Assembly (NCBI GenBank): GCA_965207065.1
Contig: OZ242260.1
Location: forward strand, 2,464,001-2,528,000
Reading direction: 5' to 3'
DNA: 64,000 bases
DNA from: a bacterium
GTDB lineage: Bacteria; UBA8248
Under the pieces are notes generated by a model. It did not search any database and had not been told where the DNA came from. It saw only the letters and a program-made list of their open reading frames with translations. The translations under genes were made by a program, and so were the position numbers. This document shows, one piece after another, positions 2,762-52,318 of this stretch (position 1 is the first letter of the stretch; each line of letters begins with the position of its first letter).

Positions 2762-4024
2762 ATGGCGGAACCTGTTCGCGGCGAAATCGTCGCCATCGGC
2801 ACCGAGATGCTCCTCGGCGACCTCATCGACACCAACAGCGCGTTCATCGCGGACCAGCTCAAGTCGATCGGCGTCAACATGTATTTCAATACCACCGTGG
2901 GCGACAACCTGGACAGGATCGCGGGCGTCATCAAGCAGGCGCACGAGCGCTCTCAGGTGGTCATCACCACGGGCGGGCTCGGCCCCACAGTGGACGACCT
3001 GACGCGGGAGGCCTGCGCGAAGGTGATGGGCGTGGAGCTCGAGTACCGGCAGGACCTGTACGACTACATCAGCGCCTATTTCAGCCGGCGCGGCTTCCAC
3101 ATGAGCGACAACAACAAGAAGCAGGCCTACATTCCCGCAGGCGCGACGCCCATCGAGAATCCGCGCGGCACGGCGCCTTGTTTCATGTGCGAGGACGAGA
3201 ACGGGGTCATCATCGTGAGCCCGGGCGTGCCGCACGAGATGCGCTACATCATCACCCAGTGCGCGGTGCCCATCCTGCAGGAGAAATTCGACTTAGGCGA
3301 AGTTATCCGCACGAAGGTCCTGAAGACATGCGGCCTCGGCGAATCGAGGGTCGACGAGATGATATCGGAGTTGTTTCGGGAATCCATCAACCCGAGCATC
3401 GGCGTGCTCGCCCACCCCGGACAGGTGGACGTGCGGATCACCGCGCGCGCGAAAGACATCGAAGAGGCGAACAACCTGATCGCGGGGCTGGAAGTGAAGG
3501 TGCGCGAGATTCTCGGCTCCGCCGTCTACGCCACCGGGAACGCGACGCTCGAGGAGACGCTGGCGCGTGTGCTGGCCCAGAGCGGCAAGACCATCGCGAT
3601 CGTCGAGTCGAACACGGGCGGGGCCTTGATCCAGCGGCTGAACGCCTGGCCCGAGCGCGTGCAGTTCTTAAAGCGCGGCGTCGTCGGCCTGCACGTAGAG
3701 GAACTCGCGCGAATGTTCGGCGTGGATGCGGGAGCAAGCCCTGAGGACATCGCAAAAGCGCTCGCCGGGAAAATTCGCGAGGAATCCGGCGCCGACTTAG
3801 GGCTCGCCGTCTTCGGCCCCAATCCACCCGAGAACATCGAGCCTGAAAACTCCCGCCGCGCGCCCGCGCTGGGCGATACCCACATGGCGCTCGATACGGG
3901 CGGCGACGCCTTCACCTTCTCGTCGAGCTTCGGGGGGAACGAGCAGTTCGTGCAGTCGCGCGCGCCGATCTACGGGATGGAACTCGTGCGCCGCGCGGTG
4001 CTGGGCCTCGACCCGCTGGGGTGA
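2762..4024 (+). CDS. cinA: CinA family competence/damage-inducible protein (MocF domain plus degenerate PncC-like domain)
   Basis: IGTEMLLG..IDTNS, VGDN, TTGGLGPTVDDLTRE, PGVPHEM. Confidence 0.9.
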   Translation: MAEPVRGEIVAIGTEMLLGDLIDTNSAFIADQLKSIGVNMYFNTTVGDNLDRIAGVIKQAHERSQVVITTGGLGPTVDDLTREACAKVMGVELEYRQDLYDYISAYFSRRGFHMSDNNKKQAYIPAGATPIENPRGTAPCFMCEDENGVIIVSPGVPHEMRYIITQCAVPILQEKFDLGEVIRTKVLKTCGLGESRVDEMISELFRESINPSIGVLAHPGQVDVRITARAKDIEEANNLIAGLEVKVREILGSAVYATGNATLEETLARVLAQSGKTIAIVESNTGGALIQRLNAWPERVQFLKRGVVGLHVEELARMFGVDAGASPEDIAKALAGKIREESGADLGLAVFGPNPPENIEPENSRRAPALGDTHMALDTGGDAFTFSSSFGGNEQFVQSRAPIYGMELVRRAVLGLDPLG

Positions 4025-11584: not shown

Positions 11585-12608
11585 GCCCGCCAAAATGAAT
11601 CATTCACTCCTGAAAGTGAGCAGGCTGACGAAGCACTTCCCGGTCGAAGGGGGATGGCTCCGGCCTCCCCGCCACGTGCACGCCGTGGACGACATCAGCT
11701 TCTCGCTCAAGGCCGGCGAGTCGTTCGCCCTGGTGGGTGAGAGCGGCTGCGGGAAAACGACGACGGCCCGCCTGCTGGCGAAGCTGGAAAAGCCCGACGA
11801 CGGAAGCATCCTCTTCGACGAACAGGAAGTCGCGGAACTGAGCGGACCCGCCCTCAAGAAATACAACCGCGACGTGCAGATGATATTTCAGGACCCCTTC
11901 GAATCCCTGAATCCCCGGCGCACCGTACGGGCCATACTGCGCCAGCCCCTCCTCAACCATGACGCGGCGGAGAAAGGGGAGATTGACGAGACCGTCGTCG
12001 GGCTCCTGAACCAGGTGGGCATGGAGCCGGGCGAAATCTTCATGGACCGCTACCCGCACCAGCTCAGCGGCGGCCAGCGCCAGCGAATCGGCATCGCGCG
12101 GGCGCTCACGCTGAAGCCCCGGCTCGTGATCGCAGACGAGCCGGTCTCCTCGCTCGACATCTCCATCCGCGCCCAAATCCTGAACCTCCTGAAAGCCCTT
12201 CAGTCGCAACATGATCTCTCCTACCTCTTCATCACGCACGACCTGGGGGTGGTGCGCTCGGTCTGCGACAGGGTGGGGGTCATGTACCTGGGCGAGATCG
12301 TGGAGCTTGCGGCGGTGGAGTCGCTCTTCACCACCCCGCTGCACCCTTATACGCAGGCGCTGCTCTCGGCCACGCCGGTAGCGGACCCGGTGAAGGCCAG
12401 GGAGCGGCGGCGCATCATCCTCAAGGGAGAGGTTCCCTCCGCCCTCGACCCGCCGACCGGATGCCGTTTCCATACGCGTTGCCCCTACAGCGAGAAGCGC
12501 TGCGTGGAAGAGAAGCCGGCGCTGCGGGAGTTCCACCCCGGCCATACCGTGTCCTGTCATTTCGCAGGCGACGTCGGCGTTAACGTAACCGCCGATTCAT
12601 ACACTTAG
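11577..12608 (+). CDS. ABC peptide transporter ATP-binding protein (DppF-like)
   Basis: GESGCGKT, LSGGQRQR, ADEPVSSLD, GCRFHTRC. Confidence 0.92.
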   Translation: MNEPAKMNHSLLKVSRLTKHFPVEGGWLRPPRHVHAVDDISFSLKAGESFALVGESGCGKTTTARLLAKLEKPDDGSILFDEQEVAELSGPALKKYNRDVQMIFQDPFESLNPRRTVRAILRQPLLNHDAAEKGEIDETVVGLLNQVGMEPGEIFMDRYPHQLSGGQRQRIGIARALTLKPRLVIADEPVSSLDISIRAQILNLLKALQSQHDLSYLFITHDLGVVRSVCDRVGVMYLGEIVELAAVESLFTTPLHPYTQALLSATPVADPVKARERRRIILKGEVPSALDPPTGCRFHTRCPYSEKRCVEEKPALREFHPGHTVSCHFAGDVGVNVTADSYT

Positions 12609-41200: not shown

Positions 41201-41709
41201 CCCCAGCTCGCCTTGAGCATGACGGGAAAACCGACTTCGCGGGCGAGACGCGCGGCCTCGCCCGGGTCGTTGGGGAGCGGGCCGGTCGCCGGAACCACCG
41301 GAACGTCCGCCGACACCGCGAGTTCCCGCGCCGCCACCTTGTTGCCGAGCGCGCGCATGATATCGGGCTTCGGGCCGACGAAGACGACGCCGGCCTCCGC
41401 GCACGCCTCGGCGAAGTCGGGGTTCTCGGCCAGGAAGCCGTAGCCCGGGTGGAACGCATCGGCGCCGTTCTCGCGCGCAACGCGCATCACCTCGTCAATG
41501 CTGAGGTAGGCCTCTATCGGGCCCATCCCCCGGCCCACCTGGTAGGCTTCGTCGGCCTTGAATCGGTGCAGCGCGAAGCGGTCCTCCTGCGAGTAGATCG
41601 CGATCGTTTCAATGCCGAGTTCGACCGAGGCGCGGAACACGCGGATGGCGATTTCGCTCCGGTTGGCGACGAGAATCCGGCGGAAATTGGTCTGCGGCTC
41701 GTTGATCAT
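38245..41709 (-). CDS. pyc: Pyruvate carboxylase
   Basis: Biotin carboxylase (ANRSEIAIR, GGGGRG), carboxyltransferase (RDAHQSLLATR, HTHDT), biotinyl AMKM. Confidence 0.96.
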   Translation of the reverse strand: MINEPQTNFRRILVANRSEIAIRVFRASVELGIETIAIYSQEDRFALHRFKADEAYQVGRGMGPIEAYLSIDEVMRVARENGADAFHPGYGFLAENPDFAEACAEAGVVFVGPKPDIMRALGNKVAARELAVSADVPVVPATGPLPNDPGEAARLAREVGFPVMLKASWGGGGRGMRTIETEAELADAVEAARRECLAAFGNDEVYLEKLILRARHVEVQILGDNHGNLVHLHERDCSVQRRNQKIVEQAPAHYLDGETRAAIHESALKIGRAVGYNNAGTVEFLVDDDTGAFHFIEVNPRIQVEHTVTEVVTGVDLVKAQIRIADGAAIGAPESGIPGQDDIRVNGHAMQCRVTTEDPENNFIPDYGVLTNYRGATGFGIRLDGGTAYSGARITPFYDSLLEKVTAWAPTFEEAMRRMKRAIVEFRIRGVATNLAFLDNVISHPQFIEGACTTRFVDETPELFRFEYRRDRATRLLRYLGEVIVNGNGAVEGRAKPPTHQTPSAPEAPGAEIQDGTRQLLDELGPERFAQWMLEQDRVLMTDTTFRDAHQSLLATRVRSYDLVAVAPFYARMLPRLFSVECWGGATFDVAMRFLGECPWATLERLRAAMPNLLTQMLLRASNGVGYTTYPDNVVRYFVQQSAENGIDIFRIFDSLNWVENMRPAMDAVLETGKLCEAAICYTGDITDPGLTKYDLKYYVALARELEAAGAHILGLKDMAGLCKPAAAKLLVETLKQEIGIPIHYHTHDTSGISAASVLAAVEAGVDAVDAAMDSMSGLTSQPSFGSITAALRHSPRDPGFDPDTVMTLSTYWEQVRNLYRAFESDFRAGTSDVYNHGIPGGQYTNLREQARALGIDNQRWPEVSRAFAEVNRMFGDIVKVTPSSKVVGDMALMMVTGGLTPEDVADPEREIAFPESVVSLFAGELGQPHGGFPRALQEKILKDREPITVRPGSVLPDADLDAGREEAEKGAQRPISDAEFASWLMYPQVFTEYATARRQYSDVSVLPTPVYFYGMEPDEEIAVDIERGRTLFIRYVARSETDSKGECTVFFELNGQPRTVRVADRSAAAAVTALPKAEEGDPGHVGAPMPGMVTKVFFHEGDAVDEGDVLVAIEAMKMETVIRAERGGVVEKVVAPAGTTVDTKDLLVVVGDG

Positions 41710-41800
41710 GTCGTTCCCTTTGCGCTCTCGCGGAACTCTCGTCCGCCAATGTCAGAGGTTATGTCGTCAATGGGTCTTGCTCATCATAATATGGGTGCGA

Positions 41801-42000
41801 GCGCCCCGAACCGAGCGCGTCTGCGTCTTAACCGCCGCCCAGGATCGCCGGCAGGCGCGATTTTTGGGCGCATGACTCCGAGGGCTCCGTTCCCTCCACG
41901 AAGGCTTCCAGTATCGGTTCCCCCTCGCACCAGGCCGAGGGTAAATGGCCGGAGCGCGAATCCACCTTCACCAGTTTGATGCCCGGCGGCGGCTCCGGGT
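41801..42000 (-). pseudogene. Displaced duplicate of the PBP1A 3' end (island boundary repeat)
   Basis: 185/200 identical by manual alignment, no gaps, to 47720-47919; encodes PEPPPGIKLVKVDSRSGHLPSAWC...ILGGG-stop with no start. Confidence 0.9.
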
Positions 42001-42038
42001 CGAAAAAAGGCTCCAGAAATTTGCTTTTCGCGATAAGA

Positions 42039-42947
42039 CTAAACTACTTCTTTCTCTGCTGTGAGTGCTATCTGATCGAAAAAACCTGGTGGCAAGCTCT
42101 TGAAATTCTTTGACTCGTTACCCTCCTGATGCGCAAGGAGTTCGGCAAGCGGGAGTTCGATGAGCTGCGCATTAGGTAAATTTTGACCTGAATGTCTGTA
42201 TATGGTGCGCTTGTATGGCTTCCGGAAAGGGCTCACGGCCTGAGAGCCGCCAAATTTTCCGCAGTTACAGACCACCACATTGCAAAACAACATCCGTCCG
42301 AGTGCTTCAGCCAAGTGGTCGAATGATGTCGTGTCCCTGTTATAGGCGAGGATAAACAGCGTTTGTATTTTGTTGCGATACATAACGATCCGATCCAAGT
42401 CCATGAAGTCGTAACAGATTGCCACCGCGAATTTTCCCAAGTCTGTGCTTTCGAATATCCAAATCGTAGGATCTGACACAAACTTTACGCTAGCACCGGT
42501 AATATCTAGCAACCTTTTTTTTTCACCCGGAGCAGGATAGGTTTTCCCGACGCGCCGAGTTTCTGTGCGTGATGCAATTCGTCGCCCTTTCAACCGCCTA
42601 GGAACGATGACAACAGCTTCGTTTGATACCGCCGGATATGGCTGCGCGAGTTCTATCCGATAATCGAGCCCCGCAATAATAATCGACTCTATTTTATCAG
42701 CCGCCCTCTTAAGTTTACCTTCGAAACCTATGGGTATCGCGAGCTCAGGGAAGAGCACGATATCGGGTTGTCGTTCCATACTTCGTAGCCAAGCCAGATA
42801 ATGCCGAATTTCCTTTTTTGCTCGTTTTTCCTCTAAGAACGACATGCGTACACATTGTTGCCAGTTGCCCGATTTGTCATCAATCCACGCTGCTCTATCG
42901 TCTAGTGAAGTCTGAATGACACCGACAATTAGAGTGTTATTCACCAT
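42039..42947 (-). CDS. Carbon-nitrogen hydrolase (nitrilase fold), RT-associated
   Basis: Glu-Lys-Cys triad motifs IVLFPELAIP, VGKTYP, ICYDF; NVVVCN..GGS; overlaps the RT stop by 11 nt. Confidence 0.88.
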   Translation of the reverse strand: MVNNTLIVGVIQTSLDDRAAWIDDKSGNWQQCVRMSFLEEKRAKKEIRHYLAWLRSMERQPDIVLFPELAIPIGFEGKLKRAADKIESIIIAGLDYRIELAQPYPAVSNEAVVIVPRRLKGRRIASRTETRRVGKTYPAPGEKKRLLDITGASVKFVSDPTIWIFESTDLGKFAVAICYDFMDLDRIVMYRNKIQTLFILAYNRDTTSFDHLAEALGRMLFCNVVVCNCGKFGGSQAVSPFRKPYKRTIYRHSGQNLPNAQLIELPLAELLAHQEGNESKNFKSLPPGFFDQIALTAEKEVV

Positions 42948-45900
42948 AGTCCACCGCTCCTACTCCCTCATCTCGACCTGTGGCGAAGTCACTTAACCGA
43001 AATGGAATCAACTGCCGAGGCTGATTCATTACAACGGCCAATTGGTTGCCCTTAAGAGCATCTTGAGCGTTCTCTATTGCACTTAGCAATTCGTTTGGTC
43101 CGAGCAGCAAAGGTGGATCAAACTCAATATCGTTGGGCTCATTACCGTCTACCCAGCCGAACAGTCCAGGATGAAAAGTTAATGTCCGTGTTTCCGCGCT
43201 GCGAGCACTAAGGCAACCTTCCAGAAGTCGGAGGGTAGGTGAAGAAATCTCTAGCGATTGAAACCAGCGTCTTCGCGGCAACATAAGTATTTGCTCGTTG
43301 CCTCGGATGTTCCACATTCTTAATACCTTGTGATTGAGCTGCAATATGCCCAAAAGTAGGCGTCCCACACCGATGAGTCGTCGCTCCCATTCTTTTAACT
43401 GAAGTCCACCCTGAGTTTCTGTGAAATAGCGGTAGTCTAAAATGGATGTGGCTGAGTCACGCAGCTTGATTCGCCTTGTTTTTGTAGCCTGAACGAAATA
43501 TCGCCACTCTTCCCAACTTACACCTGCCAGAGAACTTTCATAAATAAACGCTGTCTTCCACTCCTCTGGTACCAGGACATTGTTGGGATGGAGACGATCC
43601 AAGAGCTTTTGTTGCACGGTTAAATCATCTACAATAGGCGAGACAAGCTGACGGGTGATCTCAAGTGCAGTCCATTCACTCCGCCTTGGATCGAAAGGGC
43701 TGAACTCTTGCGATATTAATTGCGTCCATTCCAGAAGTGTCATCCAGTCCTGGGATGGAGCTAATAGCGATCGGGCAGCACGTTTGAATGCCGACTTATT
43801 AGAAGAACTAGCTGCTACAATGCGCAAGTCGTTACCATCCATAGTATCACGTAACCAGCCGGAGTCGGTCTCTGGCATCGGCTTCTTTGAATGGAGTAAA
43901 TGAAGCCACCCTTTGTCCGATAGGAACTCGGGATATCTGCGCGCCGCTCGAACATCAATGCCATGAGAGAAAGAAAAAAGCAGTTCAAACCGTTTCCAGG
44001 CTGGGGAAGGTTTGTCATCAGCACTTAGTATGGACTCAGCAAAATGCGCCCAAACACTTGGTCTCTGGCCAGTTTCATGTACCCATGTCTCTGGAGGATC
44101 ATCAAATGACATGCGCACAAACTGGCTGGCTAGACCGTCGAGGCGCGCGCCGAGGCGTGTGTCTGTGATCGTTTGACGAACAACCTCAGCAACCGATAGT
44201 AATGCAACGCCGAATACCTTTCGACTGACGGCATGGAACCACGCTTCGTTCTCGAGTGGCACGAGAAATTTCATGGCGTCGATGTGGCTTAAGTCCTCCA
44301 AATGGCATAAGGCAGCTTTCTGTTCCGACTGTAATGCATCTTCTGCCTGCAATCTTCGGACACTCAGCAATGCACCCCGTGCCAAAATGTGGAGCGATAA
44401 TCCTGCATAATAGTTGCTCCAAACTATATGGCCTTGATCGCGGATTTCCTTTATCCAATTTCCAATTTCGCAAAGTCCCATAAAGCCAGTAACACGGCAG
44501 TACTCGTGAATCCTAAAGAATAAGCGAGGTTTTCCAGGGAATTCACGGAACGCCTGAAGCAGCAAACTGAAGCAATGTCGCAAATGACGCTCTTCGCTCT
44601 TCTTGTCCTCTGCTTGCAAAGTCTCTACCTGTTTCTTCTGCTCTTCCATGGCAGTTCTGTGCTCATCTATTTTCTTCTGTGTTGCAGTTTCTGGATTAGG
44701 GGCTTGAGCTTTGATAATTTCTAGGTTCCGAGCAGCGGCGACAAGACCATCCGCTTCTTGGGCAAGGATGGGTGCTAAATTTGCAATCTGGCCAGCTGCG
44801 AATGCGGCGCGTGTATCTGGGCGGATTTCCCGTTCAGGGATATTGGCTAACAAAAGCCATTCGAGCAGTTTCAGACGTTCCTCAAGATCTTCGTCATCCA
44901 AAATGTCAATATTTGCTGCAGCTATAGCTGAGATCTGTCCGAGCGTTTTCGTAAGGAGCTTAGTAGGATTCCTGCCATCAAACTTGGTGTCGTGGATCGC
45001 GGCCTCCTCAGCTTTCTGTTCTGAGTGTTTCTTTGCTTGTTTTCTCGTACCTTTGGTATTCATCAACGCTTTAGCGCGTGTCTTCATCCACTTCCCAAGG
45101 CTGGTAGGGTCGTACTTTTCGTCATTTACTTCCGCACCGATGTCAAAGTTAGTCAATAAGGTGCAGTACTCGTCGATCCAATTGCAAAGTTCCTCGAAGT
45201 CATATGCAAGTAGTGTGTGGTCATCTACAAATCGAAAATGAGCAATGGATCGCCGATTAATAATGCGGCTGTTGACGATGGTATCTATCGGAAGCATGGC
45301 TGCATTGGCAAGAAATCCCGCCACGAAAAGTCCTGTTGGAATCCCTTGGACTCGTAGACCCCTATATTTGGGCTCGACGTGTTCAAGGGTGTGCGGAGGC
45401 ATTTCAGACTTGTCGAGCCGAAAGTCAAGCATTCCACTAAGTAGATTCTTCATGCGATCATCGAAGCTTTCCGCGGAGGCTAGTCCTTTTAGCACCGCTT
45501 CAGTTTGTAAACTAGGAAAGAATTGCTTCAGATCGATCGATGCGTGAAAAAGTTCGGTCCCGTGTGTTTGCCCCGTTTTCGATTGCCAGAAATGAGCCTT
45601 CAAATATGGCAATTTTTCTTTTTCTGCCGCGATAAAGGCCATTTGATCGCTCTGATCGAGGTTTTCTGGATTCATGGTTCGCGCCATTGTTCGGGCTGTA
45701 AGTGCTACGTGTCGTCTAAAGAGCGGCCAGCTATGCTGAAATTTTCGGTAGAGATAACCGCTGGCATGCCTATACGGCCCGATTTCTAGAGTTGACTGCT
45801 GGTTTTCATCGTTCTCGTACCAAGCTTGCCGATATATACGATTGCCGTAGCTCCATGGTGGCATTTTCAAGTCAAGTTCGGGCCCGAGCGCATTAGCAAT

Positions 45901-46188
45901 GGCAATCCAAGCAACCTGATCATCAATGGCCACATGATAATATTGGCGATTGATTGGTTTTTCGCCCTTAATTTCTTTTGGCCGTGGCAATGGGCGTAGT
46001 TTCTTGGGACGCCAGAAACCCTGTGCAAATTTCTGATGAATTCCGAGCAACCGCTGTTCGAGGTTAAGTTCAAACTCGGCTAACTCACAATTGTCGATGT
46101 AACCGTCAAAAGCGCGATAGAGTCTTTTGGTTTTTAGCCAAGCGTAATTAAGGTTTTCTGGCAGCAATAGTCGATCGTATGCATTCAA
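42937..46188 (-). CDS. Large UG/Abi (DRT-like) reverse transcriptase, 1083 aa
   Basis: NL..AW.K, PRPK, DQV, SYGNR, IDLKQFFPSL, GIPTGLFVAGFLAN, FRFVDD (45220-45231), VNDEK; TTG start overlaps the primase stop. Confidence 0.9.
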   Translation of the reverse strand: MNAYDRLLLPENLNYAWLKTKRLYRAFDGYIDNCELAEFELNLEQRLLGIHQKFAQGFWRPKKLRPLPRPKEIKGEKPINRQYYHVAIDDQVAWIAIANALGPELDLKMPPWSYGNRIYRQAWYENDENQQSTLEIGPYRHASGYLYRKFQHSWPLFRRHVALTARTMARTMNPENLDQSDQMAFIAAEKEKLPYLKAHFWQSKTGQTHGTELFHASIDLKQFFPSLQTEAVLKGLASAESFDDRMKNLLSGMLDFRLDKSEMPPHTLEHVEPKYRGLRVQGIPTGLFVAGFLANAAMLPIDTIVNSRIINRRSIAHFRFVDDHTLLAYDFEELCNWIDEYCTLLTNFDIGAEVNDEKYDPTSLGKWMKTRAKALMNTKGTRKQAKKHSEQKAEEAAIHDTKFDGRNPTKLLTKTLGQISAIAAANIDILDDEDLEERLKLLEWLLLANIPEREIRPDTRAAFAAGQIANLAPILAQEADGLVAAARNLEIIKAQAPNPETATQKKIDEHRTAMEEQKKQVETLQAEDKKSEERHLRHCFSLLLQAFREFPGKPRLFFRIHEYCRVTGFMGLCEIGNWIKEIRDQGHIVWSNYYAGLSLHILARGALLSVRRLQAEDALQSEQKAALCHLEDLSHIDAMKFLVPLENEAWFHAVSRKVFGVALLSVAEVVRQTITDTRLGARLDGLASQFVRMSFDDPPETWVHETGQRPSVWAHFAESILSADDKPSPAWKRFELLFSFSHGIDVRAARRYPEFLSDKGWLHLLHSKKPMPETDSGWLRDTMDGNDLRIVAASSSNKSAFKRAARSLLAPSQDWMTLLEWTQLISQEFSPFDPRRSEWTALEITRQLVSPIVDDLTVQQKLLDRLHPNNVLVPEEWKTAFIYESSLAGVSWEEWRYFVQATKTRRIKLRDSATSILDYRYFTETQGGLQLKEWERRLIGVGRLLLGILQLNHKVLRMWNIRGNEQILMLPRRRWFQSLEISSPTLRLLEGCLSARSAETRTLTFHPGLFGWVDGNEPNDIEFDPPLLLGPNELLSAIENAQDALKGNQLAVVMNQPRQLIPFRLSDFATGRDEGVGAVDYGE

Positions 46189-47243
46189 CTTTGCGCCCTC
46201 CTTTCCATTAGATATTCATTGACATCTTTCACAGTGGGAGAAGGGCATCTCTTCCGCGTTGAAGCTATACCGAACTTACGCATTTCTTTCTGCAGATCAG
46301 CAGCACCTGTTTCCCCGGATGAATCCCAATCCAAGAGAATAACGACCTGCTTTCCGCGCAACTGGCTGAGCTGTTCTTTGTTCAACTTTGCATTAGCACC
46401 GATTAATCCGATGGCACCATATCCAAGCTCAATTGCAGACAGAGTGTCTATGACACCTTCGCAAATGGCAAATAGTCTGCACCGGGTATCGAGCAGTGCG
46501 CCTATGTTATAAATGCGACGCTTGCGATGATTGAGATTGCGCCACTTTCCTCGATTTTCAGTTCCTGGAAGCAGACGCGACTGGAAATATGTAATTTGAC
46601 CGTTCTCGATAAAAGGGAACAAAAGGCTATTTTCAGGAAATATGAATAAACTGTTTTTCGTGGTCGATTTATTGGCAAGCAAGCCTGCAGTTTCAAGCCG
46701 CTGATAGCCAAAGGTGCGGATCAACGTATTAAGAATGGCCCTGCGATTTGATATCTGCCCGATGCGGAAGTCAGATATCTTCTCCTCTGATAGGCCCCTT
46801 TTGACCAAGTATTTCAGCCCACTTTTTTGCAGCGGCGCACGCTGGAGAAGTTTTTCATACACTTCATAGTCCGGTGGGGACTCAGCTAATTCATGTGTCA
46901 CAGGAGACGATGGTTTGGCTATAGGCATTACGCGGGAACCGTAACTCGTTGGCGGCAATGTTGTAGTGTCCATTTCTACACGAGCTGCGAGCCACCGTTT
47001 CGCCTCTGAAAAGTTGATACGATGATAGAACTTTACAAGATCGATTGCTCCTCCTTTGCGCCCACACCCATAGCAAATCCAGCGATTAACCAAGTTTCCT
47101 ATTACGAATGAGGGTGATTTATCAGCGTGATCCGGAAACGGACAGTGAGCAGATCCACGGAACGGAAGCTGCAACCCAAGTAAATTCCCAACGAATTGGA
47201 TAGGCATGCGATTGAGTGTTTCAGTGTCTTCACGAAAACCCAT
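46185..47243 (-). CDS. DnaG-like primase (CHC2 zinc finger plus TOPRIM), no helicase-binding domain
   Basis: CPFPDH.DKSPSF..CYGCG..GGAID; CEGVID; LDWDSSG; KDVNEYL. Confidence 0.9.
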   Translation of the reverse strand: MGFREDTETLNRMPIQFVGNLLGLQLPFRGSAHCPFPDHADKSPSFVIGNLVNRWICYGCGRKGGAIDLVKFYHRINFSEAKRWLAARVEMDTTTLPPTSYGSRVMPIAKPSSPVTHELAESPPDYEVYEKLLQRAPLQKSGLKYLVKRGLSEEKISDFRIGQISNRRAILNTLIRTFGYQRLETAGLLANKSTTKNSLFIFPENSLLFPFIENGQITYFQSRLLPGTENRGKWRNLNHRKRRIYNIGALLDTRCRLFAICEGVIDTLSAIELGYGAIGLIGANAKLNKEQLSQLRGKQVVILLDWDSSGETGAADLQKEMRKFGIASTRKRCPSPTVKDVNEYLMERRAQS

Positions 47244-47698
47244 GTGTCATGTCCTTAGGATATCAGACTCTGAGTGTAGCCAATACAACTTCATCTGTGT
47301 GTCACTCGTCCAAGTTTAGGACATATTTTGACACTGGGGTTTTGTCGGCAACCTGTTGCAAAAGGTTCTTTATTTGTGATTTTCAATGCTCAGCTTTCTC
47401 TATTATGGTTCTTGCAAACTACAACTTGGCAGAAACAAGCGTGTCCTGTGTCGTGCGAAATTGACAATTTGAATGTCCAATTGCATGCAAAGTTTAAGGC
47501 GCAGTCTGACACTGCCGTCAAAAAAATTATTAAGGTAAATTCCTATATTTCAGGCATTCACGTTTTTTGAAGATCGGCACGCTCTATTTAACGACGGATG
47601 CGGGACAATGCGCACCGGAAAGAAAACCACACACGTTGCTCCAGGTTCTTAGACGAAGGCGAATCTGCACCCCTGAGGCAATCCGCGATAGGCCGATA

Positions 47699-47720
47699 CG
47701 CATTCGTGGCGTCGAATGCG
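47699..47720 (-). terminator. Hairpin downstream of the PBP1A stop at the island edge
   Basis: CGCATTCG-TGGCGT-CGAATGCG perfect 8-bp stem; no U-tract. Confidence 0.4.
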
Positions 47721-47746
47721 CGCCCCGAACCGAGCGCGTAGACGTC

Positions 47747-50035
47747 TTAACCGCCGCCCAGTATCGCCGGCAGGAGAGATTTCCGGGCGCAAGGCTCTGA
47801 TGGCTCCGTTCCCTCCACGAAGGCTTCCAGTATCGGTTCCCCCTCGCACCAGGCCGAGGGTAAATGGCCGGAGCGCGAATCCACGTTCACCAGTATGATG
47901 CCAGGCGGCGGCTCCGGGTTCCGAATTTCATATTCCCTGTCTTCGAACCAGCCCTTCATCACTTCGACCCAGACGGGCAGGGCCGCGCTTCCGCCCGAAG
48001 CCCGGTAGCCCATGTGCTTGTTGTCGTCGCGGCCCACCCATACGCCCAGCACGAGGTCTTCGGAGAAGCCGATGAACCAGGCGTCCCGGAATTCGTTCGT
48101 GGTGCCTGTTTTCCCGGCCAGGAATGCGCCGATCTCTTTGGCCTTTTTCCCGGTTCCGTTCGTGACGACGCCGCGCAGAAGCATTTTCATCTGGTATGCC
48201 GTCTCGGGCGTGATGGCGAGGTGCGTCGTGGGAACGTTGTCTTCCAGCACCCGGTTTCTCCCATCGGTGACTTTCGTGATCTCATAGGGCCGCGCGTATA
48301 CGCCGCGCGTGGCGAATGGGATGTATGAGGCCGTGAACTGGTATGGCGACACCTCGATGGAGCCGAGAGCGAGGGAAAGGTACGGGTTCATTTTCGAGCG
48401 AATGCCGAGCCGGTGCGCGAACGTGATCGCCTTTTGCGGACCCATCTGGTCGAGCAGCTTGATGGTCGCCAGGTTGAGGGAGGATTCCAGGGCCTTTCGC
48501 ATGGTGACGGGGCCATAGAACTTGTTGGTGTAGTTTCTGGGTTTCCAGTCCTTGAGCGTCCCCGGCATGCGGCGCACGAAGGGGGTATCCATGAGTATAT
48601 GGGCGGGCGTGTAGCCCTGGGAAAGGGCAGTCCCCATGACGATGGGCTTGAAAGCCGAACCCGGCTGGCGCCTCGCCTGCGTGGCGCGGTTGAACGGGAA
48701 GCGGCGGAAGTTGGTTCCGCCCGTCAGGGCGCGGAGCGCTCCGGTTTTGGGGTCGAACGCGATGACGGCTCCTTGTACGGTTTCCTGCCACTCCAGGAAT
48801 AGTTTTTTCGAGGCGCGGTCCACCTTGATCACGCGCCCCAGAAGCAGGTCGCCTTCCCTGAGCCTTTTGGGGTCGATGTGTCGGGGAGCAGGCATCTCCG
48901 CCTCATAGTCCCCGATGATTCCGCTCACCATCTTGCCCGTGATGTCCAGAATGTGGAACTGGAATCGATCCCCCAATCGCGGCGGCCTCTTGATTTCCGC
49001 TCCGGGACTCTTGAATCCGCGTCTTTTGTTTATCTTCTCGATTCCGTTGATGAGCGCTTTGTGAGCGATTTTCTGCAGGCCGATATCGATCGTCGTATGG
49101 ATTTGCAGACCGCTCTTGTAAAGGGATTGTCCATATCGGCGGCTGAGGCTGATGCGCGTTTTTTCAATGAAATAGGCGGCTTCCGGCACGATATTGGCTA
49201 TCCGGGGGATCACTTCGATTGGCTCTTCGCGGGTGGTATTCGCCTGCTCTTCGGTGATGAAGCCCGAAGCCCGCATTCTGTCGATCACCAGGTTGCGTCT
49301 CCACATCGCCTTTTCGGGATTGGTTCTGGGATTGAACCTGGTGGGCGCCTTGGGCAGACCTGCAATCATGGCGGATTCGGCCAGGGTGAGTTGGGCGACC
49401 GTTTTCCCGAAATATATCTGGGCCGCCGCCTGCACGCCGTACGCGCCGCTGCCGAGGTAGATTTGGTTCATGTAAAATTCGAGTATTTCATCTTTCGTGA
49501 AGCGCCGCTCGATCTCGAGGGCCAATAAGGCTTCCCGAAATTTCCGCTTGAGTTTTTGCTCTGGCGTCAGGAAGAGGACTTTCGCCAACTGCTGCGTGAT
49601 GGTGCTGCCCCCCTGAACGTAGCGGCCCGCGAGCAGGTTCTTGATAAACGCCCGAAAGATATCGGGATAGCTCACGCCGGGGTGGTCGTAGAAGCGGCTG
49701 TCTTCTATGGCCAGAAACGCCTGCTGCAGCTTTGCGGGGATTTGTTTCAAAGGGATGGGTTTTCTTCTTTCCTGGTACAGTTCCGCCAGCAACTCGCCTC
49801 CGCGGGCGTAAATGCGCGTGATGGTGTTGGGTTTATAGTTATGGAGACGCTCGAGTTCGGGAAAATCGTAAAGATAGGTAAAGCTGGCGCCTATCCCCAT
49901 TCCGCATAAAATGGCCAGAACACTTAGGGTGAGAAGGGTTGTTCTTCCGCGTATGGAACGGGGCAACAACGGAGTGGTCCTCTTTGGGAGGCGAATTTTT
50001 CGAAGCGTTTCTCCGCATTTTGCGGAGATCGACAA
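47747..50035 (-). CDS. mrcA: Class A penicillin-binding protein 1A (start uncertain)
   Basis: TM anchor; EDSRFYDH, GGSTITQQLAK, RKFRE; SAFK, SLN, KTG. Confidence 0.92.
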   Translation of the reverse strand: MSISAKCGETLRKIRLPKRTTPLLPRSIRGRTTLLTLSVLAILCGMGIGASFTYLYDFPELERLHNYKPNTITRIYARGGELLAELYQERRKPIPLKQIPAKLQQAFLAIEDSRFYDHPGVSYPDIFRAFIKNLLAGRYVQGGSTITQQLAKVLFLTPEQKLKRKFREALLALEIERRFTKDEILEFYMNQIYLGSGAYGVQAAAQIYFGKTVAQLTLAESAMIAGLPKAPTRFNPRTNPEKAMWRRNLVIDRMRASGFITEEQANTTREEPIEVIPRIANIVPEAAYFIEKTRISLSRRYGQSLYKSGLQIHTTIDIGLQKIAHKALINGIEKINKRRGFKSPGAEIKRPPRLGDRFQFHILDITGKMVSGIIGDYEAEMPAPRHIDPKRLREGDLLLGRVIKVDRASKKLFLEWQETVQGAVIAFDPKTGALRALTGGTNFRRFPFNRATQARRQPGSAFKPIVMGTALSQGYTPAHILMDTPFVRRMPGTLKDWKPRNYTNKFYGPVTMRKALESSLNLATIKLLDQMGPQKAITFAHRLGIRSKMNPYLSLALGSIEVSPYQFTASYIPFATRGVYARPYEITKVTDGRNRVLEDNVPTTHLAITPETAYQMKMLLRGVVTNGTGKKAKEIGAFLAGKTGTTNEFRDAWFIGFSEDLVLGVWVGRDDNKHMGYRASGGSAALPVWVEVMKGWFEDREYEIRNPEPPPGIILVNVDSRSGHLPSAWCEGEPILEAFVEGTEPSEPCARKSLLPAILGGG

Positions 50036-50566: not shown

Positions 50567-50791
50567 CGTTCCGGGAACATTACCTGATTGTATGCTATAA
50601 GAACCTATAATTCGAGTAAAAAATATAAATCTAGTATTGGGGAACTCCACGAGCAAGGGTGAAAAACGGAACTATTCTTCACTTGCGCTGTTATTGTCGC
50701 AACGTCCCGGCAAATTTGTCGAGGTTTCGTTTGACTGCTTGTATGTTCCGCCTGAGAAGTCTCCTGGGCGGGCTCACAAAGGGAGGTGAAT

Positions 50792-52318
50792 GTGAGAACA
50801 GTATTGACAATTCTTGCGGTGACGATTCTTGCGGCCCTCACAGTTCTGACCGGGTGCGGCGGCGGAGGGGGCGGAGGTTCTGTTCCCACACCTGCTGTTA
50901 TGCCGGGTTCTCCAGAGATGGAAATTATTCCTGAACATTCCGGCATCGAGAATATCGCGGGGGTGGATATCCGGGATACGTGGAAATCGCCCGAACCGAT
51001 CAAGTCGTATTTTGGTCTTAGTGGAGATGGTAATTTACCCCGGTTCGAAGGTATCGATTCGTCGCAGTATTCCATATTGGGTTCCAAGGACGGAATTACT
51101 TATGCACAAAGGATGTCGGGTCCGACGGACACGATTGATATCGACTTCATCGGGGATTTTGATGGGTATTTTGACTCGTTGCCGGATTACGTGCGGGGAA
51201 CCATCGAGAGAGCGGGAAAGGCCTGGTCTCATAGGCTCAAGGACGTACTCGGCCCCTTCATGTCAACGGATTCGGTGGTGACCCGCAAGGGGAGGGATGA
51301 GAACGGATGGACTATCCCACGCTTGGTGGACGGGATTCTCCTTGATTTTGAAACTGATTTCGAGAATCCCAAGTGGGATTTTGAATGGGGCTATTCCCGC
51401 GGGTTTTATCGGTACGAACAGATAGAGGGAAAGGACTTTACGGTCAGGACGGGTTGGATTGAGGTGGCGGCGGGTGACATCAACAGAGGGCCATTGTGGT
51501 TCGCATATCTCGCTGCTCATGAAATTGGCCACGCAATCGGACATGGCATAGAACTCGGGAGAACCGACACTCCGGAGACCATTGAACGTTACATAGACTA
51601 CGAGCGCGGAGTATGGACCGGCCCGAACTTGACGGCGGCCAACGGTGGCAGGAACGTGGCTTTCCAGCCCGGGCATGAAGGAAAATCCGATTTTGGCCAT
51701 TTAGGCGCCTGCGAGATGATCATGTCCTATTGCGGTGCTGGAATTGCAATCCCGCATGAGATGGATTTCGCCTACATGAAGGATATCGGTTATACCGTGG
51801 CGGATGACTATCCTACGGAGCCTGAGGCATACAGCTATGGCGCATGGGCGCAACATTCGGCTTGGGTGGTGACATCGGCCCGAATCATGACTTTCTCACC
51901 CACCCGCATCACCGACTACATTACGGTGGAAGCGGATGTTTACGGGAATCCGGCATTCACGAATTTCGCCGATGCGCACACGGGCACGCTGACGTGGAAC
52001 GGCTCTTTGCTGGCCAGCGATATGGCCAGTTTTGCTCCGGTGTTCGGCGAAGCGGAAATCGTTCTTTCCGCCGACACGCTCGACGGCACGGTGCAGTTCA
52101 TGAATCTTCGCTCGGTAGTTGACGTGGAAGCGCAGGCTCAACTCACGGGATGGCGGAAATCCAGTCTGGCGTATGACGTGACGGTGGAAGAAAACGGGTT
52201 CACGGACACAGGCGGAAAAGTGATGGGAAGGTTTTACGGCCCGAATCACGAGGAGGCGGCCGGGATTCTGGATGATGCGGCGGAGAAAATTCTTGGAGCA
52301 TTCGGCGGGATAAGATAA
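50792..52318 (+). CDS. Surface lipoprotein with zinc metalloprotease motif and C-terminal TbpB-like beta-barrel
   Basis: Lipobox LTGC plus poly-Gly; HEIGHAIG..GH..IMSY; GRFYGPNHEEAAG..GAFGG. Confidence 0.8.
   Translation: MRTVLTILAVTILAALTVLTGCGGGGGGGSVPTPAVMPGSPEMEIIPEHSGIENIAGVDIRDTWKSPEPIKSYFGLSGDGNLPRFEGIDSSQYSILGSKDGITYAQRMSGPTDTIDIDFIGDFDGYFDSLPDYVRGTIERAGKAWSHRLKDVLGPFMSTDSVVTRKGRDENGWTIPRLVDGILLDFETDFENPKWDFEWGYSRGFYRYEQIEGKDFTVRTGWIEVAAGDINRGPLWFAYLAAHEIGHAIGHGIELGRTDTPETIERYIDYERGVWTGPNLTAANGGRNVAFQPGHEGKSDFGHLGACEMIMSYCGAGIAIPHEMDFAYMKDIGYTVADDYPTEPEAYSYGAWAQHSAWVVTSARIMTFSPTRITDYITVEADVYGNPAFTNFADAHTGTLTWNGSLLASDMASFAPVFGEAEIVLSADTLDGTVQFMNLRSVVDVEAQAQLTGWRKSSLAYDVTVEENGFTDTGGKVMGRFYGPNHEEAAGILDDAAEKILGAFGGIR

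Follow-up and report, generated by a model that had tools for sequence, protein, structure and literature searches.

The closest described systems

The subject of this analysis is a three-gene operon at positions 42039-47243 of a 64,000-nucleotide stretch of contig OZ242260.1 from a UBA8248 bacterium (hereafter the window), which encodes a DnaG-like primase, a large reverse transcriptase (RT) and a stand-alone nitrilase. The profile matches described below identify it as an intact UG6 system, a type catalogued as candidate anti-phage defence. Mestre et al. (2022, PMC9226505) placed UG6 among the Class 3 UG/Abi RTs, as 'family E' of earlier surveys cited there; that paper describes a separate hydrolase gene (cluster 285), a separate DnaG-type primase gene (cluster 192) and an RT whose C-terminal domain shows remote, catalytically dead kinase-like homology. 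A further paper treats the UG6 nitrilase as an independent downstream gene, groups it in a single radiation with those of UG1 and UG5, and names UG5 DRT11 (PMC13436386). UG6 is among those Class 3 RT-nitrilase groups on which full-text literature searches turned up no experimental work.

Mechanistic knowledge comes from relatives, chiefly DRT1, which like UG5 is experimentally defensive. According to the DRT1 paper (PMC13275509), DRT1, DRT5S and DRT5L synthesize DNA without a template, and the product is covalently bound to protein. The DRT1 primer is Ser402, a residue reported there not to be conserved in other Class 3 RTs. Defence needs both RT aspartates and the nitrilase cysteine. The DNA adducts drive assembly of tetramers and of filaments, and in the filament the nitrilase site is closed by domain-swapped C-termini, the lid lying in the 19 C-terminal residues. 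The DNA both assembles the nitrilase and silences it until a phage trigger arrives. Exonuclease I trims the adducts to 17-30 nucleotides (nt) in vitro, and T4 Dda, a 5'-3' single-stranded DNA (ssDNA) helicase that acts as the trigger, is required for DRT1 activity. The same source cites a retron-Eco2 RT-toprim fusion whose effector activity is needed.

A complete UG6 operon

The features of the locus are as follows.

46185-47243, minus strand: DnaG-like primase gene, 352 amino acids, ATG start; CHC2 zinc ribbon, primase catalytic core and TOPRIM domain
42937-46188, minus strand: RT gene of the UG6 group (Class 3 UG/Abi), 1083 amino acids, TTG start; PADLOC RT_UG6
42039-42947, minus strand: stand-alone nitrilase-superfamily (C-N hydrolase) gene, presumed effector, 302 amino acids, ATG start; PADLOC RTasNitrilase
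47244-47719, minus strand: non-coding leader of about 476 nt, presumed promoter region, AT-rich in its 3' two thirds
47720-47919: proximal 200-nt direct repeat copy, the present 3' end and stop codon of the PBP1A-type gene 47747-50035 (minus strand)
41801-42000: distal 200-nt direct repeat copy, flanked by the nitrilase stop and the pyruvate carboxylase gene; represents the displaced 3' end of PBP1A

The RT matches the PADLOC RT_UG6 profile over residues 108-1074 at E=0 and 1196.5 bits, and a genome-wide search gave the same outcome. The next-best PADLOC family, Drt1a, reaches 55 bits. The primase matches RTasDnaG-like at 4.4e-109 and, at 1.7e-22, the N-terminal end of RT_UG29; the nitrilase matches RTasNitrilase at 2.6e-118. 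These profiles, together with the residue alignments presented below, establish the family identity of all three proteins and the integrity of their catalytic residues. An earlier note, made from the sequence alone, had proposed a candidate defence operon built on a UG/Abi-type RT and a nitrilase, and the RT_UG6 score and the profiles for both partners bear this out. The RT is not of the group II intron, retron or diversity-generating retroelement (DGR) type: retron-type profiles score 15-19 bits at best against 1196 for RT_UG6, and the region 41500-48000 has no Rfam family at E<=1. What falls away is the suggestion that the split DnaG-RT-nitrilase form is new, because the trio is the defining UG6 layout (PMC9226505) and PADLOC models exist for each of the three proteins. 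As a discovery, the locus itself is ordinary: PADLOC-based annotation pipelines would label the trio automatically.

The three genes are translationally coupled. The TGA stop of the primase gene is overlapped by the TTG start of the RT gene, immediately 5' of which lies the purine-rich ribosome-binding stretch GGAAAGGAGG; at the next junction, 11 nt are common to the end of the RT gene with its stop and the nitrilase ATG, in different frames. The TTG start is backed by homologues that begin with methionine at the same aligned position in the alignment consensus, and a related locus (L001) has ATG there. The coding sequence of the trio comes to 5.2 kb, and the window copy has no accessory genes. 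The GC content is 0.43-0.50 across 42000-47500 as against 0.57-0.70 in the flanks. The earlier description of three co-oriented, overlapping genes in an AT-rich islet thus agrees with the open reading frame (ORF) listing to the base and with the base composition, and its statement that the catalytic motifs are intact is upheld by homologue alignments of all three proteins.

Distribution and conservation of gene order

The size of the family was gauged by two protein searches. A word-indexed search returned 374 proteins at E<=1e-10 among 8000 candidates scored, and an exhaustive search of 1.84 billion cluster representatives returned 283 at E<=1e-30. Named homologues belong to Alphaproteobacteria such as Mesorhizobium, Azospirillum, Celeribacter, Sulfitobacter and Thalassospira, and the closest relatives share 71-73% identity. 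Gene order was compared across 36 related loci; 35 came from metagenomes and the remaining one from an alphaproteobacterial metagenome-assembled genome (64% RT identity). In 35 of the 36, the gene immediately upstream of the RT gene, on the same strand, codes for a primase homologue; the sole miss has only 574 nt of upstream sequence. This confirms that the primase is kept next to RT homologues. The gene immediately downstream codes for a nitrilase homologue in 26 of the 36, and all ten misses are contigs that end within the RT gene. Wherever a locus extended far enough, the order primase-RT-nitrilase is thus strictly conserved.

In the phylum of the window, a UG6 RT was found in 1/51 genomes, namely the window's own, and in 0/22 other genomes of the genus. 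No match was obtained by tblastn to plasmid and phage collections, and none in a scan of viral contigs. The flanks of the related loci were surveyed by clustering and scanning up to three ORFs per side per locus. Among the resulting 104 ORFs were the defence proteins ThsB, a type IV restriction enzyme, Lit and ApeA, as well as integrases, a type IV secretion system coupling protein and phage GPA.

The three proteins

All the elements of a DnaG-type polymerase are present in the primase. Pfam recognizes Zn_ribbon_DnaG (1.2e-11), DNAG_N (3.2e-09) and Toprim_2 (2.6e-10), and the sequence matches in the PDB are DnaG cores (5guj, 2au3, 1d0q) and zinc-binding domains. In 30 homologues, the zinc-finger residues C34/H39/C57/C60, the TOPRIM acidic residues E262, D266, D305-x-D307 and D340, and the basic residues R149 and R223 are invariant. 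As in replicative DnaG, the zinc ribbon, RNA-polymerase core and TOPRIM domain are all there. Replicative DnaG carries in addition a C-terminal helicase-interaction domain, for a total of about 580-630 amino acids, whereas the window protein has only 352 residues and ends 7 residues past the Toprim_2 match without any C-terminal helicase-binding region. The genome's second DnaG-like match is a 628-amino-acid ORF outside the window (G000:C1:2779079-2780065; L057 1501-3387), which is presumably the replicative primase; the islet protein would therefore be an extra, C-terminally short copy. We favour the view that this protein performs real RNA synthesis on ssDNA, because all primase features are kept, TOPRIM being only one of them. 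This is the least supported step of the explanation proposed below.

Across 21 RT sequences, D219, V321, D322 and D323 never vary, and F320 of the FVDD motif is found in at least 90%. The protein has no Pfam match. Its AlphaFold2 model (pLDDT 77.6, pTM 0.78) places fingers and palm in approximately the first 380 residues, followed by a long all-helical extension. The best PDB match of an RT profile is DRT1 (9yfd, 5.2e-07). With the whole model, every Foldseek match is to an RT domain, in a structure library dated to 2026-04-08 that did not contain 9yfd. The C-terminal extension gave no match, kinase-like or other, in Pfam, in Foldseek with the whole model or in the ESM Atlas with residues 480-1083. 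Two segments combine conservation with low model confidence. Residues 116-152 are highly conserved, yet have pLDDT <50, and the invariant residues S113, Y114, S132, Y139, S143, Y147 and S153 lie in or beside them; the C-terminal tail 1050-1083 is among the most conserved segments, yet it too has pLDDT <50. One might speculate from the model that the former is a candidate priming loop and the latter a candidate partner-docking motif. A complex prediction with RT residues 480-1083 and the nitrilase, both supplied as alignments, scored 0.00 twice; run without controls, it speaks neither way.

The nitrilase falls below the Pfam cut-off for CN_hydrolase (19.3 against 23.2 bits). Its AlphaFold2 model (pLDDT 83.8, pTM 0.86) nevertheless gave 213 PDB matches at E<=0.001 in Foldseek, led by formamidases, Nit2 and aliphatic amidases with TM scores of about 0.6, and the triad E68/K135/C178 is invariant in two alignments of 23 and 21 sequences. 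Against the DRT1 nitrilase domain (9yfd residues 1009-1225), phmmer gives 4.6e-12, and the alignment, which runs to 9yfd residue 1225, extends up to a shared C-terminal K..P.GF segment. K283, L285, P286 and G288 are invariant among UG6 nitrilases. In DRT1, the segment falls within the domain-swapped lid introduced above.

A recurrent exonuclease partner

The flank survey brought out a fourth gene. Five loci were counted as duplicates, three with 100% identical upstream DNA and two assumed from identical hit patterns, leaving 31 distinct related loci. An adjacent, co-oriented gene for a DEDDh 3'-5' exonuclease occurs in 16 of these, and in 9/14 of the distinct loci having at least 1.4 kb on both sides. 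It comes in two forms of unrelated length, on either side of the operon. An SbcB-like form is found in five loci (L021, L025, L031, L040 and L044): in four it comes directly after the nitrilase gene and matches PADLOC RTasSbcB at 1e-156 to 1e-198, and the fifth has a more distant one upstream. The other form, of about 300 amino acids and RNase_T type, is found in 11 loci (L022, L034, L035, L038, L041, L043, L045, L048, L050, L052 and L055), either directly upstream of the primase gene (all but L022) or downstream of the nitrilase gene; its distance to the primase gene is 19-55 nt where measured, and 309 nt in L022. The main text of Mestre et al. ties SbcB to UG17 only, while the supplementary tables of that paper may list such clusters (PMC9226505). 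That an exonuclease recurs suggests that the product is ssDNA whose 3' end is free, which fits the trimming of DRT1 adducts by Exonuclease I.

Acquisition of the islet

The trio was acquired horizontally on a 5.9-kb islet of low GC content. This conclusion follows from the GC drop, from the 200-nt repeats at its borders, from an empty site in a genome of the same genus, and from the finding of the UG6 RT in just one of 51 genomes of the phylum. The direct repeats bracketing the islet are 93% identical at a spacing of 5919 nt. Both copies correspond to the 3' end of the PBP1A (penicillin-binding protein) gene, with the frame kept to the same stop codon in each; the PBP1A-type gene itself has the Pfam domains Transgly and Transpeptidase. 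In the empty site (genome G002), the PBP gene abuts the pyruvate carboxylase gene and a single repeat copy is present. When the two repeat copies were compared with the PBP genes of same-genus genomes, the distal copy was closer than the proximal one in 7/9, equally close in one and less close in one. The greater likeness of the distal copy to same-genus sequences suggests that a gene end of its own arrived with the incoming DNA, as happens with integrative elements. No integrase or recombinase is encoded within the islet. Among contigs of three runs, one of 5896 nt covers 41936-47831 and breaks inside the direct repeats.

Direct repeats were found around one of 12 other UG6 loci examined (L026). 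The operon there is part of an 8.9-kb island that also encodes a PF10136 site-specific recombinase and whose insertion point is the 3' end of a gene for a phosphate acetyl/butyryl transferase (pta-type); the island repeats (3546-3630 and 12413-12497) are 85 nt long and 89% identical.

The possibility that the insertion site is a variable defence hotspot was considered and rejected. In a comparison covering 14 kb downstream of the PBP gene, seven other same-genus genomes (L013-L019: G011, G008, G001, G007, G004, G006 and G010) have no pyruvate carboxylase gene after the PBP1A gene. Instead, they carry mutually similar sets: in six of the seven, ORFs of about 320, 1200-1250, 425-470 and 312 amino acids follow one another in a similar series, with G010 (L019) differing. 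The PBP-pyc junction is common only to the window and G002, and since pyruvate carboxylase is absent from this place in the other seven genomes, the junction is a lineage-specific rearrangement. Elsewhere in the neighbourhood, a 510-amino-acid ORF (50786-52318, plus strand) has a weak, sub-threshold match to the family of the TbpB beta-barrel lobe (24.2 bits against a cut-off of 26 bits).

The leader

A single weak sigma-70-like site (47553-47526) was predicted in the leader; 3 such sites were found in the region, where shuffled sequences would give 7.0. A few bases past the PBP1A stop, at the inner border of the proximal repeat, the minus strand of 47699-47720 forms a perfect 8-bp stem with a 6-nt loop, which looks like the terminator stem of the PBP1A gene, though no T run follows it. 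The fold of the leader RNA is unremarkable (z = -1.61), and pairwise alignment with the L001 leader revealed no conserved blocks. When 31 upstream regions were compared with one another by blastn, the only matches were between duplicates and among members of a distant clade, where the matching upstream DNA is the exonuclease gene. The leader thus shows no sign of a structured RNA, or of one conserved within this clade.

Proposed mechanism and alternatives

Taken as a whole, the explanation we lean towards, and hold to be somewhat on the probable side of even, is that of an intact, imported UG6 module working through a DRT1-like core, with the primase acting on ssDNA. The DRT1-like core is inferred because DRT1 is the best structure match and because the nitrilase aligns with it through the C-terminal K..P.GF segment. 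By analogy with DRT1, DRT5S and DRT5L, the UG6 RT would use no RNA template, would prime on one of its own residues and would leave a short, semi-random ssDNA covalently attached to itself. This adduct may bring RT and nitrilase together in an oligomer that holds the nitrilase assembled yet silent. A phage replication function would then disturb the DNA-protein assembly and free the nitrilase, and the freed enzyme would hydrolyse an essential amide or nitrile metabolite, leading the infected cell to abort the infection. On weaker grounds, the DnaG-like primase may copy RT-made or phage ssDNA into short RNAs as a second layer of sensing or control, and, again with less support, a dedicated 3'-5' ssDNA exonuclease may trim the RT-made DNA in about half of the related loci. 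The earlier note had proposed that the RT product switches on the nitrilase. This proposal is partly in line with the published account of the relative DRT1, in which an untemplated, covalently protein-primed DNA assembles the nitrilase and keeps it silent until a phage trigger (PMC13275509).

Several observations weigh against this explanation. No phage or biochemical test of UG6 was found in the literature, and the mechanism rests wholly on analogy. The DRT1 priming serine is reported not to be conserved in other Class 3 RTs, so that protein priming in UG6 has to be proposed without a mapped residue, and even for DRT1 the same paper gives no nitrilase substrate (PMC13275509). DRT1 works without a primase, and the analogy therefore assigns the DnaG-like protein no role. 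Further, the islet lies between housekeeping genes and not within a defence island, and the window copy lacks the exonuclease of half its relatives, in a host genome (96% complete) with no Exonuc_X-T_C match.

A bolder version, possible if doubtful, would make UG6 a two-polymerase device. The untemplated, protein-anchored ssDNA of the RT would serve the DnaG-like protein for the synthesis of short RNAs, and the resulting RNA-DNA hybrid, not the ssDNA, would gate the nitrilase; the exonuclease, where present, would set its lifetime. If true, this would show a DnaG-type primase in defence for the first time and provide a DnaG-based counterpart, independently arrived at, of the RT-to-primase hand-off of DRT7. 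The primase could also stand at the beginning of the pathway, its RNA primer being extended by the RT on phage or cellular ssDNA or without a template, to give a free RNA-DNA chimera and no protein adduct. The invariance of all its catalytic and zinc-finger residues would fit such a role, as would its constant translational adjacency to the RT, its fusion to the RT in UG29, and the lack of a conserved DRT1-type priming serine. Yet DRT1, DRT5S and DRT5L, all the Class 3 RTs tested so far, are protein-primed without a primase, and the conserved, low-confidence RT segment 116-152, rich in invariant serine and tyrosine, could be a priming loop; we regard primase priming as rather unlikely. That the DnaG-like protein is not a polymerase at all, its TOPRIM domain being a nuclease or DNA-binding sensor that acts as second effector or trigger receptor, appears distinctly unlikely. 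TOPRIM domains act in this way in some retron and OLD-type defences, and the acidic residues of the domain are invariant here. The effector activity needed in the retron-Eco2 fusion, as cited in the DRT1 paper, points the same way, but the zinc ribbon, the DNAG_N core and the invariant R149 and R223 are also kept, and a mere nuclease would not need these.

Two further readings depart from DRT1 altogether, and both seem to us highly improbable. In one, the RT would copy a non-coding RNA encoded in the 476-nt leader or at another place in the islet, as in the Class 2 DRTs. The leader is indeed unusually long, and several related loci have upstream gaps of about 290-650 nt. However, no Rfam family matches, the fold is unremarkable and leaders in this clade share no sequence conservation; in the distant clade, the primase gene begins only 19-55 nt after the exonuclease gene, and the tested Class 3 RTs need no template. 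In the other, the locus would serve no immunity: primase and RT would replicate or maintain a small selfish integrative element, with the nitrilase as cargo or addiction toxin. Such an element would accord with an islet that is bounded by direct repeats, lacks its own recombinase and is absent from the close relative G002, and with the recombinase-bearing, repeat-bounded island of L026. Against it speak the very different flanks and elements in which this trio recurs, the lack of any hit in the collections of phages, plasmids and viral contigs searched, and the defence shown by experiment for its nearest relatives, DRT1 and UG5 (DRT11; PMC13436386).

Whichever role the primase has, the part played by a DnaG-type primase in immunity is most simply addressed in UG6, since its three activities sit on separate proteins. 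The window copy offers a clean minimal construct for such a test, being compact and complete, with its catalytic residues in place and no accessory genes.

Comparison with known systems

With the known UG6 systems, the window locus shares an RT of about 1080 residues with a C-terminal extension, a downstream C-N hydrolase gene and an upstream DnaG-type primase gene, and no architectural difference was seen in it. It does differ in setting, since the named homologues are mostly from Alphaproteobacteria while the window copy belongs to a phylum with a single positive genome among 51, and in lacking the DEDDh exonuclease that adjoins about half of the related loci.

Among solved structures, both the RT and the nitrilase of the window match DRT1 (UG1; 9yfd) best. 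DRT1 has in common with them a Class 3 RT, a homologous nitrilase with an E-K-C triad and a similar C-terminal lid segment. However, DRT1 is a single RT-nitrilase polypeptide of 1229 amino acids without a primase, whereas the window has separate ORFs; the window RT scores 55 bits on Drt1a as against 1196 on UG6, and Ser402 is reported not to be conserved outside DRT1. The small UG5 system (DRT5S) likewise has RT and nitrilase as two genes, and its RT makes template-free, protein-linked DNA. It has no DnaG-like primase gene, and its nitrilase belongs to cluster 249, that of UG6 to cluster 285.

Two other groups bring an RT together with a primase. In UG29, a DnaG-type primase, an RT and a hydrolase follow one another in the same order, but as parts of a single fusion protein of about 2500 amino acids, where the window has three separate ORFs. 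In DRT7 (UG10), the ssDNA made by the RT goes to a primase-polymerase as primer and template (bioRxiv 10.64898/2026.04.18.719102 and 10.64898/2026.02.16.706125). That RT belongs to Class 1, its PrimPol is of the unrelated archaeo-eukaryotic primase (AEP) type and is fused to the RT, and the system has no nitrilase. Nevertheless, the hand-off in DRT7 is a possible working model for the primase of the window.

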